From Isurus oxyrinchus (lineage: Eukaryota), in the NCBI GenBank assembly GCA_026770705.1, contig JANJGN010000005.1, positions 137,516,001 through 137,580,000 on the forward strand: a stretch of 64,000 nucleotides of DNA. Reading direction: 5' to 3'. Below, one piece after another: positions 8,405 through 49,783 of the stretch. The stretch's first letter is position 1. Each line of letters starts with the position of its first letter. A model generated the notes under the pieces. It did not search any database. It was not told the origin of the DNA and worked only from the letters and a program-made list of their open reading frames with translations. A program made the translations under genes and the position numbers.

Positions 8405-11180
8405 ATGTTTAATGTTTCAGGTTGATGAGCTTTCATCAGAACTGAAAGAATTTAAAGATGCAGCAGATTTAAGCAAGCACAAAAGCGAGAAACAGGGCGG
8501 GTAGGAAAGTGCAAAAGGGAAGGCTTGTGATATGGTGGTTAAAAACAGGAGAGATTAAATGGCAAAAGGAAGGTGATAAGGTGGTTAAAAAAGCAGGAGA
8601 GATTAAATGGCAAAAGGAATGGTGGTGCAAGACAAAAAGAGGCAGTGGATAGGACAAGTCTAGAGCAGGTGTAAACAGAAATAGTAGAATCATTATCAAC
8701 AGCAGCTGTCTGAGAAAATGGACAGTTATGATCTGAAATTATCGAACTTACTGGAGTCCAGAAGGCTGTAAAGTGCCTAATTCAAAGAGGAGGTGCTGTT
8801 CTTCAAGCTTATGTTGAACTTCATTGGAACCTTGAAGAGACTTGGGTCAGACTGGGAGTGAGGCAGGGAATTAAAATGACAGGTGACTGGAAGCTACAGG
8901 TTATACTTGCAGGCTGCATATAGTTGTACTGCAAAGCCACTGCCACTAAGTCTGCAACACTTCATTCTCAGAACTAATCCTAATATTCTCTTTAAACCTA
9001 CAGACAAGGGTGGCGCTGGTGTTGTTTGCCCAGCTGACCTCTACCTTCCAGAGACTGAACGACGACAACTCTATTACACCTCCTCCTACAGCCTCCTAGA
9101 ATGTGACCCTCCATTGAACATGTCTTCGTTTCCAAGAATCTAACTGACTTAATCTCTGGGGTTCTTTCTCACAGCTTCTAATCTGATAGGTCCCCAACCC
9201 CATGTAGCCTGCTTTTATTCACAAGAGTCACAAACAGGACCACCCTGGGAGGCCTATCATTTCAGCCTGTCCTTGCCATACAGAAAGGACTTCCTCCCAT
9301 CTCCCCTTGTCTAGACGTCTTTCCCACTTATATCTGTACCTCTTGTATTCCTTCCGCCAATTTAAAAGTTTCCTGGATCTAACTATCCTCTTTTCACTAA
9401 CCCTTTCAACACTTCCTTTCCCACCAGAATGGCCTGAAGGCCTTGTGCTTCTTCCACGATCGGAGGTCCAACCAATCCCCATTCACTGCCCTTCCCGCCT
9501 TGCTGAACTTGTCCTTGTATTGAAAGCTTATTCTTTGACTGCACTCACTTCCTCCAAGTAAAGAGTGTTGCTATGGAGAATCACATGGGTCACAGCTATG
9601 TTTGCCTTTTCATGAAATATGTGGAACGTTGTTTGTTCCAATCCTACTTGGGTCCCCTCTCTTCTTTTTTTCAGTACATTAATGCCTGATTATCTCCTGA
9701 TTCTCCTCCATGTTGCTGCTATTCTGCGTTTCCTGCTCCCACCCCAAACTGGAAAGTTTAATCAACTTTGCTTTCAATTTCTACTTTTCCCTTGTCTTCA
9801 CATGAACCATCTCTGACTCTCTCCTTCCCTTACTTTTCAGTCTCCATTTTTGGGGATAATTCATCCACTATAATTACACTGACCCTCATACCTTTCCTAT
9901 ACTGCCCCCCACCCCACTGTTTCCTTCGGTAAAGATTTTATTCTATTCTCCTAGTTCCTCTGTCTCCATTGCATCTGTTCTGATAATGCTACTTTTCATG
10001 CCACTGCTTCTGATATGTTTTCCTTTTGACTTAACTGAGGATTTCCTTTTACATGGTTGACAGGGCCCTCAACTGTGTCCATTCTATTTCCTTAACTTTT
10101 TCTCTCGCCCCTTCCTCTCCCACCCAGGACCACATTAGGATTCCCCTTGTCCTCAACTTCTACCCCACCAGCTTCCAGATTCAACAGATTGTTCTCCATT
10201 AGGAGCAACAGGTTACCACCACCACCAGCATGTTACCACTGGCAAATGTTCCTTCCCCTTTTCAGCATTTCCTCCATGATACTTTGCTCCACTCCTGAAT
10301 CATCCCCAACACCCCCTCCTTTCCCATGGCACCTTCCTGTGCAAGCATGGGAGAACAACACTGCCCTTTCACCTCTTCCTTTCTCACTGTCCAGAGCCTC
10401 AAACATCTTTTCAGATGAATCAGCAATTTACTTGTACTCCTTTCAATTTAATACCCTGTATTTACTGCTCACAATGTGGTCTCCTCCACACCTGGGAAAC
10501 CAAGCACAAATTGGGTGACCACTTTGCCAAACACATCTGTTCAGTCTGCAAGGTAGCCTGGAGTTTCCGGTTGCCTGTTATTTTGATTCCTTGTGCCACT
10601 CCAACCCTGCCCTCTCTATTCATGGCCTCCTAAACTGTTCTAATGAAGCTTAATGTAAGCTCGAGGAACAGCACCTCATCTTTTGAATAGACACTTAAGC
10701 CTTCCAGACTGGACATTGAGTTCAACAATTTTACACCATAAACACTGCCCGAGGATCAGCACCTCATCTTTTGAATAGACACTTAAGCCTTCCAGACTGG
10801 ACATTGAGTTCAACAATTTTACACCATAAACACTGCCCTATTTTTCAGAGAGCAGCTATTGACAATGATACCGCCTGTCCATTTCGACCTCCTCTTGACA
10901 CACCTTTTGTTCCTTTATATGTCCCATTGTTATCTCCTGTGTCTTGCACCATCATCCCTTTGTCATTTAACCTCTCCTGCCTTCCACTCAATCACAGACC
11001 TTCCCTTTTGTTTTTTCCTCCCCTCTTCCCATTACCTGCTTCTCCACTTGCTTAAAACCTGTTACAACTCTTAACATTTTCCAGTTCAGATGAGAGGCCA
11101 TTAACCTGAAAGGTTAACACTTTCTCTCTCCACAAATGCTGCCTGACCTGCTGACTATTTATGGCATTTTCTGTTTTTAT
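8405..11180. mobile_element. Old Penelope-like element (family A): inverted 3' piece (8405-8935, -) plus RT/GIY-YIG body and pLTR (8940-11180, +)
   Basis: KPTDKGGAGVV (PLE RT N-term), GRPIISAC, and QQFTC..NLIPCIYCSQCGLLHTWETKHKLGDHF (GIY-YIG). pLTR motif at both outer ends in inverted orientation. Confidence 0.85.
8407..8443 (-). ncRNA. Minimal type I hammerhead ribozyme-like motif in PLE pLTR (degenerate)
   Basis: Minus strand reads AGTT-CTGATGA-AAGCTCATCAACCT-GAAA-CA-TTA-AAC. The core is intact; the stems are decayed. Confidence 0.5.
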
Positions 11181-12088: not shown

Positions 12089-12628
12089 GAACTCCATTTG
12101 GAAAGTTCTTTTAAGGAACCTAAATGTCACTTTCAAATGATGTACTAAGTGGAAAGAATGACTTTCAAATGCAGCCAATTCCTATTTAGTGAGAGATCCA
12201 ACAATCCACACCCCTGGTTTGTACCCCACTCTCTGGATAGAACTCAATTGCTTTAGATGTGCAGCAATTAACTGTTGAGGCCTTTGTGAACCTTTTGCTG
12301 CGGCCAGTTAGAAGATGTGGGTCACAGATTTTTTAAGCCCCACAAACGCACGCACACATAGCCAGGGGCTGCTTGATGACATAATATTCTTCACCAGGCT
12401 ATTGAACGGTTAGAACACTTGGATATAAATACAATTGCAATTTTTTAAAAAACTAAGCTATTTGTTCATGAAGGAAGTCATTGCCAAGACCAAGCTTTTT
12501 CTCACCTGATATCTGTCCTTGGACTCTTGCCAACAAAGACCATTGGATACTGTTCAGGTGAAAGCACTAGCTAATTTTATCCTATTCCTTGCCTTGGAGA
12601 GCTGAGGCTCCAACTACAGCCATAGTTG

Positions 12629-13341
12629 GGCTTGGCCTAAATAGCCAAGTGGTTATGATACTGGGTTTGTAACCCCAAGAGCAAGAGTTCAAATCTCACA
12701 ATGGCAAACTATGAAACAATATAACTTCATCTGAAACAGATGGCAACGGGTTTGTACTCGAAAGAGTATCAAGAGTTCAAATCTCACAATGGCAAACTAT
12801 GAAACAATGTAACTTCATCTGAAACAGATGGAAATGGGTTTGTACTCAAAAGAGTTACATTGATTGAGCAACTCGCTTGGCCTAAATAGCCAAGTGGTTA
12901 TGGTACTGGGTTTGTAACCCCAAGATCAAGAGTTCAAATCTCACAATGGCAAACAATGTAACTTCATCTGAAACAGATGGAAATGGGTTTGTGCTCGAAA
13001 GAGTATCAAGAGTTCAAATCTCACAATGGCGAAACAATGTAATTTCATCTGAAACAGATGGAAACGGGTTTGTACTCGAAAGAGTTACAGCCATAGTTGG
13101 GCTTGGCCTAAATAGCCAAGTGGTTATGGTACTGGGTTTGTAACCCCAAGATCAAGAGTTCAAATCTCACAATGGCAAACTATGAAACAATGTAACTTCA
13201 TCTGAAACAGATGAGGAAAATCCCAGTGCTGGAAAGCTTTGGGAACCAAAATCATGAGTTCAAATCTCACAATGGCAAACTACGAAACAATGTAACTTCA
13301 TCTGAAACAGATAGAAACGGGTTTGTACTCAAAAGAGTTAC
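12629..13341 (+). mobile_element. Tandem array 1 of tRNA-Thr-headed SINE-like element (3 heads, about 6 body modules)
   Basis: Head GCCTAAATAGCCAAGTGGTTATGGTACTGGGTTTGTAACCCCAAGATCAAGAGTTCAAATCTC contains an A box, a TGT anticodon loop and a B box. An ~88 bp module is repeated. tacagccatagttg occurs at 12615-12628, 13086-13099 and 13339-13352. Confidence 0.85.
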
Positions 13342-13799
13342 AGCCATAGTTGAAGAAATTGGGACAGATTGAGAATTGAGTTTAGAACCTTCTGAACTTG
13401 ATGCTTGTTTCTCTGAATCGTGATTTTTCAGTTTTACATTGCACTTTTATATTGAAATATTTGGCAGAGACTTGGTTTTCTTCCTGCAGCTTGCTTTTCA
13501 TTTCAATATATTTTCATTTGGCTATGGTTAAGTTAAAATTGAAATGATTGAACAAGCATAGTAACTTATTCTGAACCTGTGCGCTTCATTGTATCTGTGT
13601 CTCCTATTTAATCCTTATGTGATCAATCAGTTTAATGGCATATCTAATTTTGGTTGCTACTCTGTCTCAAGTTCATCAGCAACCAGCACCTCTTACCAAT
13701 GTCTCAACTTTTGTACTATTGTATTGCATCCAATAATGTGAGCACCTTGGCACAACTCTATGCCCTTGCTATTGAAGACAGCAAAGCCATTGTGTAATT

Positions 13800-26589: not shown

Positions 26590-28620
26590 ACTTTGGTAAA
26601 TGTATTTCAGTGTAGACAAATGTGAGTCATCCACTTTGTACCTAAAAAAAAAAGATAAAACAGGGTACTTTTTAAATGGGGAATATGTAGAAATAGTGAA
26701 GTTCAAAGTGACTTTGTCGGGGGTTGGAATGTGGTACATAAATCGTTAAAATGTCATGTACGGATACAAAAAATATTGAAAAACACGAATGGAATGCTGG
26801 CCTTTATATCTAAAGGACTAGAATACAGGAGGGTAGAAGCCATTTCTTCAATTGTACAAACCCCTGGTTAAACCACACTTCGAGTACTGCCAGCAATTCT
26901 GGACGTCACATCTTTGGAAGAGTATTTTGGCCTTGGAGGAAGTGCAGTGTAGATTTACTAGAACGACACCTGGGGCTCGCAAGGTTTCAGCTACGAGGAG
27001 GGATTAAACAAACTATGGTTGTATTCCTGGAATTTAAATGGTTAAGGAGTGAATTGATTGAAATATTCAAAATTTTAAAGGGAGCAGATAGGATAGATTG
27101 GGAGAAACAATTTTTCCTAATTGGGAAGTCCAGGAAAATAATCTAAAAACTGGAGCAGACCTTTCAGGATTGAAATTAAGAAGCATATTGTCACTCAAAG
27201 GGAGGATAGAAGATTGGTACACTCTTCCATAAATGATACTTAATCCTCAGCCAATTGTTAATTTTCAGTCTGAGATTGATAGGTTTTTTATTTGCCCCTT
27301 AATACCTTTAGCTAAAATGAATATATAGAGTTTGGTGGTAGATCAGCCATGATTTCATTGAATGGCAATGGAACAAGTTTGAGGGGCTAAATGGCCTACT
27401 TACTAAGTGACTAACCTCTAAATACCAGACTTGTCAAAGATGAAGTTGAACACAGAAGTGCAGTAACTAATAGTACTTAAATGAACACAGTCAAAGAAAG
27501 CATAATGATATTTTGCCATATGAATAGAGGCTTAAAAGTACAATAGCAAGGAAGTTATGCTCAAACTTTTGCAAATCATGAGTTAGGCTTCAGCTGTGAT
27601 ATTGTGTCCAATTTTGAGCACCAGTTTAAATAGTATGGCAGGGCTTTGAAGACAGTGCAAAGGCGATGAATTGGAATGGTGCCAAGGATGACGGACTTAT
27701 GAGAAGAAACTAAAGAAGCTTGGATTTTTTTTTGTTCATGTGCTCTGAGTGTCACCAGCCAGGCCAACACTTGTTATCCATCCCTAATTGCCCTCAAAGG
27801 TGATGGTGAACCCAACCTGTGGTTTGGGTGTGCCTATAGGGCTGTTAGGGAAGAAGTTTCAGACTTTTGACCAAGTGAATAAATGGCAATTTATATTTCA
27901 AAGTCAGGATCGATGTGTGACTTGGGGAACTTACAGGTGGTGGTGTTCTCATGAGCCTGCTGCTGTGGTTCTTCAAGGTGGTAGAGTTCACAGGAGCCTT
28001 GGTGAGTTATTACAATTCACTTTGTAGATGACGCACACTTCTGCCATAGCGCATCAGTGGTGATGGAAGTGTATACTTAATGTGGTGAATAAGAACCTGA
28101 TCAAATGGGCTGCTTTGTCCTGGATGGCATTGAGCTTCAATGTTGCTGGAGCTGTATTCGTCCAGTCAAGTGGGGAGCAGCCATCATACTCCTGACTTGT
28201 AGGTGTTGGACAGGATTTGGAGAGGCAGGAGCTGAGTCACTCACTGCTTGGCCTCCTTTACAACAGAGAAGATAAAGAGATTTCATAGACCTGTTCAAAA
28301 TGACGAACAAGTTAGGAGAAACAGTTTCCAGAGGCAGAAGCATTAGTAACTGGAGGACATAAATTTAAGATGATTGGCAAAAGAACCAGGGGAGATGAGA
28401 ATTTTCTTTACACATCAAGTTATGATCTGGAGTACACTGCCTGATGGGTGGTGAAAGAAAATTTGATAGCAACTTTCAAAAGGGAATTGGATGTGTATTT
28501 GAAAAGGAAACATTTGCAGGGCTTTAGAGAAAGAGCAAGGAAGTGGTACTAATTGGTAAGCTGTTTCAAAGAGCTGACATGGGCTGAATGGTGGTCTCCT
28601 GTGCTATTCAATGATTTAAT
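26590..28620. mobile_element. Cluster of CR1 3' fragments (+) with a nested LINE 3' fragment (-, about 27735-28255)
   Basis: GMLAFISKGLEY and PHFEYCQQFW remnants. The minus-strand piece matches the 55400-56020 tail. Confidence 0.7.
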
Positions 28621-28818
28621 TAACAAATTCATGGTAACACGATTAATACCATCGCGGGTTTCAATTTGAGGAGTTCATAAAGTACATATGTTAAACTTCA
28701 GAAAAAACCTGGTGGTGAAGTACTGGAGCTAATCTTTACATGATTTTGTTTACAGAAATACACAGTACAAGCATGCACCCCCTAACTGAACCACCACAGT
28801 TACAGTCTGTTACTATTT

Positions 28819-30073
28819 GTAACTTTTTCGAGTACAAGCATGTTTCCATCTGTTTCAGATGAAGTCACATTGTTTCATAGTTTGCCATTGTGAGATTTGA
28901 ACTCTTGATCTTGGGGTTACAAGCCCAGTACCATAACCACTTGGCTATTTAGGCCAAGCCTGTTACTACTTGTAACTCTTTTGAGTACAAACCCGTTTCC
29001 ATCTGTTTCAGATGAAGTTACATTGTTTCATAGTTTGCCATTGTGAGATTTGAACTCTTGGTCTTGGGGTTACAAGCCCAGTACCATAACCACTTGGCTA
29101 TTTAGGCCAAGCCTGTTATTATTTGTAACTCTTTCGAGTACAAACCCGTTTCCATCTGTTTCAGATTAAGTTACTTTGTTTTCATAGTTTGTCATTGTGA
29201 GATTTAAACTCTTGATAATCTTTTAAAATTAAAACCAATTAAACCAAATCAACAAAATTGGGATAAATCAGGCACAGCCCCTAATTCAGGTCAGCTGTAA
29301 AACCAAGGACAAAATTTAAAGGAACCATAAATATATTTCCATCTGTTCCTACTCAGATGAAGTTACATTGTTTGCCATTGTGAGATTTGAACTCTTGATG
29401 GTTTTCACTGAGAACACAACAAGTGACAAACAAGTTCCCTGCTAGAAGTAACTCTTTCGAGTACAAACCCGTTTCCATCTGTTTCAGATGAAGTTACATT
29501 GTTTTCATAGTTTGCCATTGTGAGATTTGAACTCTTGATACTCTTTCAAGCACAAACCCGTTTCCATCTGTTTCAGATGAAGTTACATTGTTTCATAGTT
29601 TGCCATTGTGAGATTTGAACTCTTGATACTCTTTCGAGCACAAACCCGTTTCCATCTGTTTCAGATGAAGTTACATTGTTTCATAGTTTTGCCATTGTGA
29701 GATTTGAACTCTTGATCTTGGGGTTACAAACCCAGTACCATGACCACTTGACTATTTAGGCCAAGCCTGTTACTATTTGTAACTCTTTTGAGAAACAACT
29801 ACATAGACCAGCAGGTCCCAGAAGCAACTCAAGGACTATGCTGAGTAACTCTTTCGACTACAAACCCATTTCCATCTGTTTCAGATGAAGTTACATTGTT
29901 TCATAGTTTTGCCATTGTGAGATTTGAACTCTTGATACTCTTTTGAGCACAAACCCATTTCCATCTGTTTCAGATGAAGTTACCTTGTTTCATAGTTTGC
30001 CATTGTGAGATTTGAACTCTCGATCTTGGGGTTACAAACCCAGTACCATAACCACTTGGCTATTTAGGCCAAG
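28819..30073 (-). mobile_element. Tandem array 2 of tRNA-Thr-headed SINE-like element (4 heads, about 10 whole or partial modules, unique inserts)
   Basis: Reverse complement of array 1 units. The 12-mer ctgttactattt (or a one-base variant) occurs at 28807, 28960, 29113 and 29767. Unique inserts at 29217-29335, 29400-29447 and 29793-29844. Confidence 0.85.
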
Positions 30074-30749
30074 TGTTTTAAACCATAGGCTACAGCGAGA
30101 AGAAGCACAAGTAAATCTCCTGTTAATGCATACCACATGTATATAATTAAATCTAGTTAATAAACAACTAACTTGGGGGATATGATTTACCAACAAGCTT
30201 AATCAGCATAAGAACAAAGTAGCTGATCACTGTATCTCTGCTTTTGCTTGATAATATAACAGATTCAATGATCAGCCTTAACAAAAAGCTTAGCAAGTTT
30301 ATGTTTAAAATTTGTATACACTGTACAACTAGTCTATCTCTAGCTTCAAATATTGTGGCTGTTATAAATTATAGGTAGAGACATACAATCATTTTGATCC
30401 TAGCGGCAACTGTGGTAGCATTGATGATCCTAATTTTACTCTGAAATATGCCATGTTCCTCCATTGTGATGTACTTTACAAGCTTACTTCTGATTAACTT
30501 CCTTCGCTTTCTACCTTTCCGTTTTACTCTGTTGTAACCTAGACAACCCACTTCCTAAGCTCTTTAAAACTTCTTTGTGATGTTAGTTGTAACATGTTGT
30601 CCTTGACAAAAGCCTGCAAATAATGCCTCAGAGTATTAAGTCTCCTGCAATTGATGTTCATGGCACTACTTGATACAACATAGCTAGTCATTTAAGTAGC
30701 TGATCTGTGAAATACTAGACAGTTGAACAAAACCCACTATTATGCTAAA

Positions 30750-30985
30750 ATAAAAACATAAAATGCCAGAAATACTCAGCAGGTCCAGCAGCATCTGTGG
30801 AGAGAGAAAAAGGTCATAACCTGAAGAGTTAACCCTTTCATTAGAACAATTCTGATGAAAGGTCATGGCCTGAAATATAAAGTCTGTTTCTCTCTCTCTC
30901 CACAAATGTTGCCAGGCCTGGCGAGTGTTTCCAGAAATTTGCTTTTATTTCAGATTCCCAGCATCCATAGTATTTTGCTTTTGGA
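30750..30985. mobile_element. Palindromic (head-to-head) PLE pLTR pair with hammerhead core at 30852
   Basis: actcagcaggtccagcagcatctgtggagagag...ctctctccacaaatgttgccagg inverted arms, with CTGATGA-AAGGTCATGGCCT-GAAA. Confidence 0.7.
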
Positions 30986-49612: not shown

Positions 49613-49783
49613 NNNNNNNNNNNNNNNNNNNNNNNNNNNNNNNNNNNNNNNNNNNNNNNNNNNNNNNNNNNNNNNNNNNNNNNNNNNNNNNNNNNNNNNN
49701 NNNNNNNNNNNNNNNNNNNNNNNNNNNNNNNNNNNNNNNNNNNNNNNNNNNNNNNNNNNNNNNNNNNNNNNNNNNNNNNNNNN
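49613..49783. other. Assembly gap (171 N)
   Basis: Run of N in the last intron of the BEND5-like gene. Confidence 1.

Follow-up and report, generated by a model that had tools for sequence, protein, structure and literature searches.

Each ingredient of the repeat-spacer array described here has a precedent: SINEs moved by Tx1 LINEs, target-site triplication, arrays of SINEs and target-site duplications (TSDs), and 3′ transduction. Lee et al. (2015) reportedly found target-site triplication in Alu. Closest to our case are the crocodilian elements SINEU-1, SINEU-2, and SINEU-3 with the Tx1-Mar LINEs, and Tx1-9_AMi in Harbinger; as PMC4494074 describes them, a Tx1 LINE moves a SINE there, as is likely here, SINE and LINE share a preferred site in an old DNA transposon, tandem copies sandwich the TSD, and 5′ additions made by template switching recur. 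The shark SINE differs from the crocodilian elements, so far as that account portrays them, in having a tRNA-derived head and an 88-nt tail common to SINE and LINE, and its arrays differ in reaching more than 10 heads and in carrying traceable 3′ flanks, LINE pieces, U6, and pre-tRNA. For target-site triplication, Weber 2006 (PMC1687206) reports snoRNA retroposons and SINEs in which different RNAs occupy a single site and are separated by a target copy, and weighs both machinery remaining at the site and independent re-use. The blood-clam arrays of Martelossi et al. 2024 (PMC11481361), with the structure TSD-(SINE-TSD)n and 4 to 15 units, have the same outward layout; the clam units are highly similar in that report and are ascribed to unequal recombination, whereas the arrays here combine unrelated RNAs with foreign spacers. 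In L1 and SVA 3′ transduction a flank tags its source and some cases are parentless (PMC7980453), like the C12 case below; unlike the cases covered in that source, the tag here is carried by a Pol III-type SINE and persists solely as an internal spacer at a T-run. For Alu, the figures given in bioRxiv 10.1101/2024.04.29.591526 include no confirmed transduction among 118,489 AluY copies, and the shark SINEs treated in PMC3747384 pair with HER1 or CR1-type LINEs. In the literature searched, with subscription papers and supplements outside its scope, we found no published description of this SINE family, of such arrays in cartilaginous fish, or of SINE arrays with traceable Pol III trailers; the family may already be named in Repbase, Dfam, or SINEBase, which lay outside the search.

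The window, by which we mean the whole 64,000-nt stretch of Isurus oxyrinchus DNA that was analyzed, carries at 28807..30073, on the minus strand, an array that is a real feature made by retrotransposition and without sign of host function. It comprises four SINE heads and nine modules, four of them behind heads and five headless, including one that is truncated. A preliminary description had already recognized the four heads and their strand, placed the three inserts at the coordinates given below, and noted that no 12-mer stands at the 30073 end, all of which our re-analysis reproduced; its figure of about ten modules comes down to nine, and the 12-mer that it took as fixed does occur at the four positions it gave (28807, 28960, 29113, and 29767), with two copies exact and two bearing one substitution. 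Read in the direction of the element, with every feature on the minus strand, the array is preceded by 27 nt (30074..30100) that separate the first head from the unique flank, hold no 5′ target copy, and have a single match in the genome at up to 2 mismatches, with no source elsewhere. Block I (29845..30073) is a SINE head with two modules, followed by a 52-bp spacer that ends in TTT (29793..29844), a 14-nt piece of the SINE/LINE tail (29779..29792), and an exact copy of the 12-mer target site (29767..29778). Block II opens with a SINE head and three modules (29448..29766) and continues through a 48-bp spacer (29400..29447), a 3′-truncated module with family-wide variants (an 8-nt deletion and a 5-nt insertion; 29336..29399), a 119-bp insert (29217..29335), and a module acting as the LINE 3′ tail (29125..29216). 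Then come a target-site copy with one substitution (29113..29124), block III, which is one full SINE (28972..29112), a further target-site copy with one substitution (28960..28971), and block IV, again one full SINE, with tail variants that differ from those of block III (28819..28959). The last 12-mer (28807..28818) is the native target sequence and continues into the unique 3′ flank. Block I thus ends in a master that carries a spacer, block II in the LINE, and blocks III and IV in SINEs that differ from each other.

The repeating unit is a 142-nt tRNA-derived SINE, with 18,312 exact heads in the 4.98-Gb genome when searched by a 22-nt head pattern. In the window its head, at 29998-30069, matches positions 1-71 of the Rfam tRNA model with 30 bits, just over the cut-off of 29, and other copies score up to 38 bits; ARAGORN called no tRNA gene. 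The anticodon loop is TGT, and the Thr label is our own reading of it. The element has several of the properties by which SINE2 families are recognized: it is short, non-coding, interspersed, and present in high copy number, has TSDs in 31 of 61 loci, and shares its tail with a LINE, in that the 88-nt module is at once SINE positions 54-142 and the 3′ tail of a Tx1-type LINE. The SINE lacks a T4 run, and its transcription by Pol III is predicted from trailers that stop at T-runs. In the 200 kb beside the window, which served as background, there is a single match to the SINE.

The TSDs of the family consist of TAC plus 10-14 nt, and what follows begins with A in 27 of the 31 loci (out of 61) that have a TSD. 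The window 12-mer also follows TAC, begins with A, and has the length of a family TSD, and the earlier view that a simple TSD does not account for it was not confirmed; a 21-nt exact pattern of tail plus 12-mer matches nothing in the genome except the window array. Most likely the 12-mer represents the sequence of the local target site, which recurs within the array. Such repetition is common in the family: internal copies of the local target were found in 12 of 42 loci from the first 18 Mb of C1, a sample that favors multi-head loci, and 8 of the 12 lie outside the Harbinger site described below. They number up to 8 per array, whereas the cases in PMC1687206, as that account presents them, are occasional pairs. 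A rough parse puts target copies at 37 of 81 junctions (compound spacers and higher-order duplicates being counted uncollapsed), and genome-wide there are 4,418 junctions of the form tail-(10-14 nt)-head, not all of which are target copies. The full triplication pattern, with a copy at both ends and between units, is seen in array 1 of the window and in sampled loci, and the window array departs from it in having no 5′ copy. Chance re-use of a target would be expected at about 0.1% (about 1e4 loci and 1.2e7 effective targets), an estimate that takes account of sequence and ignores chromatin accessibility. Adjacent blocks are of equal length in 5 of 44 pairs in the first sample and 4 of 32 in the second, where 17 of 37 regions had been dropped (11 for lying at the edge of a region, 4 for non-canonical ends, and 2 for lack of a row) from a set chosen for tail-head junctions. 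Within one array, the tails that precede target copies resemble each other no more than they do across arrays (variants shared in 19/84 vs 204/941 comparisons). Variant sharing among the heads that follow target copies exceeds chance (17/67 vs 55/682, the pairs not being independent). The target-head junction repeats the 5′ junction of its array exactly in 7 of 11 cases, with one parser artefact, and again in L181, L190, L194, L206, and L213. These patterns suggest that a new RNA served for the priming of each block on the one target, and that the junction was often copied locally. At L062 (C1:1.854 Mb) one internal spacer begins as a repeat of about 30 nt from the 3′ flank of the locus itself, more than the TSD, and then turns foreign. 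In L108 and L109 the insertions end at the module start and not at the usual tail end, the L108 target begins TTCA, and priming there seems to follow a match of a few bases.

The inserts had been described as unique, and this did not hold: the genome contains three further matches to the 48-bp spacer, five to the 52-bp spacer, and 1,196 candidates for the 119-bp insert, 40 of which were scored and proved 96-100% identical. The 48-bp spacer corresponds (47/48 identical) to the sequence that natively borders a SINE array at C19:74.97 Mb on its 3′ side; the TSD of that array has diverged. At C19 the flank reaches TTTT 6 nt beyond the spacer, which stops short of the T-run; an array on C28 carries the same sequence into that T-run and on into a new SINE head, and 19 nt of it recur in a third array. 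The 52-bp spacer is 52/52 identical to a site at C12:130.696 Mb, where TAC stands just upstream and the assembly has no SINE within 5 kb. It lies behind a SINE tail in five arrays, the window array and four others, on four contigs, and the same short tail piece, present whole or as its first 11 nt, always lies behind it. The simplest reading is that the 52-bp spacer is likely the 3′ trailer of a SINE formerly at the C12 site, the source copy being missing from this haplotype, and that the five daughters would have inherited the 14-nt tail piece from one intermediate master copy. Counting against such trailers, the spacer ends in TTT only, and among foreign spacers before a head just 6 of 28 end in TTT, with a background of 3.4%, again by the rough parse. 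The preliminary description had weighed two origins for the inserts, insertion-site flanks carried by read-through transcripts and fragments captured by template switching, and had proposed to separate them by searching the genome. That search places the 48-bp and 52-bp spacers beside another SINE site and a TAC site, in support of flank transduction, and the test spacer below falls in with them, but the 119-bp insert maps to a LINE and is the 3′ end of the partner element rather than an insertion-site flank. Template switching finds its counterpart in LINE fragments at 8 breakpoints and in U6 twice joined to one trailer. Read from the DNA junctions, the data support read-through flanks and template switching acting together.

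CRISPR arrays alternate repeats with foreign sequence that records outside sources, and the likeness of the present array to them, an alternation of repeat and spacer that records sources, is one of layout only. The spacers here are self-derived, since all three inserts map to the shark's own genome; their lengths are irregular, and no Cas-type genes are needed. The array works like a source-tagged concatemer and, on the tests made, is not a CRISPR-type system.

The 119-bp insert consists of the last 113 nt of the Tx1-type LINE before the module tail plus 6 linking letters. In 8 of 9 other loci fetched, the module likewise follows the 119-bp sequence, and it continues 18 of the 20 long-LINE 3′ ends that were read. 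Upstream of the matches lies a full-length LINE of 7 kb, present in many copies with intact ORF1 (714 aa) and ORF2 (1303 aa). Its two ORFs and the order of APE, RT, and zf-RVT domains in ORF2 are those of a Tx1 element (the zf-CCHC and zf-RVT matches fall under the Pfam curated cut-offs), and ORF2 is 49% identical to that of Xenopus Tx1 (YTX2_XENLA; P0014) over 1,300 aa and 61% in the RT region. Named ORF2 matches include Tx1 ORF2 of Xenopus (61%), alligator, and catfish, and the most identical homologue among the matches listed, at 72%, is from stingray. From ORF2 similarity and domain layout, the LINE is likely Tx1-type. A target preference is evident: TA stands at -3/-2 in 30 of 31 targets, and one site in a Harbinger-type transposon (DDE_Tnp_4 was found in 2 loci) is used by SINE and LINE pieces alike and holds 9 of 57 sampled arrays. 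Because the 88-nt tail and the preferred Harbinger site are common to both elements, it is this LINE that likely mobilizes the SINE. The LINE differs from Xenopus Tx1 in that its targets are the Harbinger site together with many TAC-A sites, and in that its 3′ tail begins inside a tRNA-like T-arm. Since the tail begins inside the tRNA-like part, it seems to have passed from SINE to LINE, opposite to the usual account. Strict targeting of the SINE by the LINE was considered and not adopted, as truncated LINE copies occupy ordinary targets.

Several further features of the LINE loci deserve mention in their own right. Full-length LINEs have the module's first 11 nt at both ends in 8 of 9 loci, as if the master had inserted inside a SINE copy (L072, 1051-1071 and 8041-8131; also L074-L079, L085, L086, L090, and L091), and the LINE's first 11 nt are the core of the Harbinger target; in L086 two LINEs sandwich the 11-mer. 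Loci L072-L079 (on C11, C3, and C2) hold intact 7-kb LINEs head-to-tail, about 99% identical, with SINE pieces between them. L053 and L060 contain tandem LINE fragments that lack the module, end in the same short tail motif, and have target copies between them; perhaps another subfamily behaves alike.

An independent test of how spacers arise comes from array 1 of the same SINE family (12617..13352, plus strand), which has its own TSD at both ends and once internally. Its 16-nt spacer (about 12859-12874) has 50 matches in the genome, all 50 of which were read; some of these rows are tandem duplicates in one locus. One match is the source, a lone SINE at C20:34.08 Mb that is bordered on both sides by a TSD and followed, past the TTTT, by native sequence. 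In the 49 daughters the trailer stands behind a SINE tail and ends in the T-run or no more than 3 letters beyond it, and those letters fit the source; among the first 48 rows, source included, the run is T4 in 30, T3 in 10, and other in 8. What follows the trailer varies: a SINE head in 34 of the 49, the LINE at 8 different breakpoints, U6 in 2, a truncated SINE in 2, and other sequence in 3, after the labels of three junctions were adjusted by eye (L141 not a head, L139 a head, L154 a LINE end). From 0 to 4 varying extra letters stand at the junctions, and some of the extra A residues agree with the next base of the source. Variants of the source recur in the daughters in nested fashion, at two CpG sites in 37/46 and 34/47, at position 89 in 16/47 (against 11/459 in the background), at position 52 in 10/46 (against 1/290), and at two further sites in 1/47 each. 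In L157 (1362-1948) a SINE with its trailer, a full U6 (Rfam 94 bits), and a second SINE lie inside one TSD, that is, three Pol III RNAs. The trailer is joined to the 5′ end of U6 twice, in L157 with T4 and in L215 with T3, and one of the two U6 copies is confirmed by Rfam. Copies of tRNA occur within the SINE arrays L149 and L124 (5110-8204), at Rfam scores of 39-49 bits, and the copy in L149 (about 1870-2020) has a 3′ trailer that runs up to TTTT. These junctions fit the prediction of end-to-end template jumping onto Pol III 3′ ends, and human L1 ORF2p, in the experiments reported in PMC10830420, jumps templates in vitro with non-templated addition and so makes concatemers. Array 1 also contains a second spacer of about 33 nt (about 13213-13245), for which no source was traced.

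The identities of the inserts, the tail and targets common to SINE and LINE, and spacers that end at the T-run of their source are direct observations. On this basis, the window array is a chain of SINEs, flanks of old insertion sites, and the end of a LINE, and we think that the Tx1-type LINE probably wrote it with its reverse transcriptase, via template jumping and re-priming. Pol III would read past the T4-less SINE to the first T-run in the flank, so that the trailer of the RNA names the source locus. The LINE endonuclease would nick at TAC-A, and reverse transcription would begin at the GAGTTAC of the tail. On reaching the 5′ end or a truncation of its RNA, the enzyme may jump to the U-rich 3′ end of another, whether SINE, LINE, U6, or pre-tRNA, and this is how trailers would turn into internal spacers. 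The same target would then be primed again with a new RNA, and the target-head junction copied from local DNA, leaving a target copy between blocks; in the window array such re-priming would have involved at least three different RNAs. Some arrays may have been enlarged afterwards by duplication at the DNA level.

Other routes to such an array have to be set against this one. Unequal crossover or slippage between two TSDs could duplicate TSD plus SINE, with ectopic gene conversion later bringing in foreign pieces; the same route is proposed for the blood-clam arrays in PMC11481361, internal target-head junctions mostly repeat the 5′ junction, as it would predict, and L107, L124, and L206 contain higher-order repeats. 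However, adjacent blocks agree in both length and diagnostics in 2 of 44 pairs, which is not the pattern of tandem copies, identical tails were found in only 1 of 53 and 0 of 31 of the adjacent pairs that were informative, and the junction of 48-bp spacer and module has no donor in the genome. Moreover, crossover alone fails because the blocks between target copies come from unrelated RNAs. We therefore consider this route improbable, and as the main one it appears largely refuted. Could the RNAs instead have been joined before reverse transcription, by an RNA ligase? The RNA ligase RtcB is said to be the joiner in human U6/L1 chimeras, and both the U-run that ends the upstream partner and the presence of U6 among the partners would suit such an origin. 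The natural 5′ start of an RNA of this type should bear a triphosphate, and since 34 of the 49 downstream partners are SINE heads at or near that start, and the joints have varying extra letters, ligation is disfavored and in our judgment quite improbable. Hardly credible is the proposal that the inserts are ancestral DNA of the locus left between clustered insertions that arose independently, or that the array is an assembly artefact. In its favor, no contig spans the array interior among the short-read contigs listed; against it, every insert has its match on another chromosome or in the LINE and is joined to the SINE tail in several independent arrays, and both outer junctions are present in read contigs of one run, which may be the assembled sample (28109-28862 with 1 difference and 30049-30793 with none).

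Within the template-jumping and re-priming account that we prefer, the timing of the re-priming is harder to settle, and whether it took place mostly in one prolonged integration episode is an even call. L157, with several jumps within one TSD, speaks for one episode; in L105 a variant of the target copy is present in the first three copies only, which requires two episodes or later duplication. The same SINE/Tx1 chemistry could instead have added blocks over generations, new RNA pairing with the resident tail and occupied sites being targeted again, to give a time-ordered log. To this we would give a real chance, though an unlikely one. The nesting of the L105 variant among neighboring copies fits it, as does the sharing of head variants after target copies noted above (the pairs, again, not being independent), and Kojima 2015 takes tandem SINEU-3 copies sandwiching a TSD, in the account of PMC4494074, as sequential insertion. 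Older blocks toward the 5′ side prevailed 13:3 in the first sample (Wilcoxon p=0.07), but this polarity was not replicated in the second (tails 7:4, heads 2:4), and private variants are a weak clock because daughters inherit the mutations of their source. The CRISPR-like repeat/spacer layout made by retrotransposition, as in the preliminary description, stands; a CRISPR-like order of the spacers in time was not borne out across the two samples. Gradual growth is also opposed by the resident tail-target junction, a poor endonuclease site (3.8 bits against a natural median of 8.0), such that re-targeting would need an RNA-guided step. Homing of that kind, with incoming SINE or LINE RNA pairing with the resident tail and the array becoming a block-by-block CRISPR-like log, strikes us as doubtful; if it were true, each array would be a dated record of germ-line-active Pol III loci and LINE masters. 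A related organism, organism B, bears on the matter in that it differs from the assembly at the 5′ end of the array, a further point for growth over generations. One of its contigs covers the 3′ flank and reaches 28836, a point exactly 30 letters inside the 12-mer repeat, and this suggests repeated target copies in organism B as well. Two others lose their match at 30101 with 29 letters unaligned, and by the record coordinates these letters would point toward the array. For the 5′ end itself, neither a flank running into TAC plus the 12-mer (9.6 bits, a score that uses assumed letters) nor a separate TAC 11-13 nt upstream can be claimed.

The source copies of Pol III SINEs are normally untraceable, and the trailers act here as barcodes that link one lone SINE to 49 daughters; each array would record which loci served as sources. 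With thousands of natural junctions from a template-jumping reverse transcriptase, and an intact partner LINE available for assay, the family makes testable the question of whether target-site triplication occurs in one reaction or by re-use of a site. Elsewhere in the window there are an unrelated 88-bp tandem duplication that is 98% identical (10662-10838) and, far from the array, a 171-base run of N (49613-49783).
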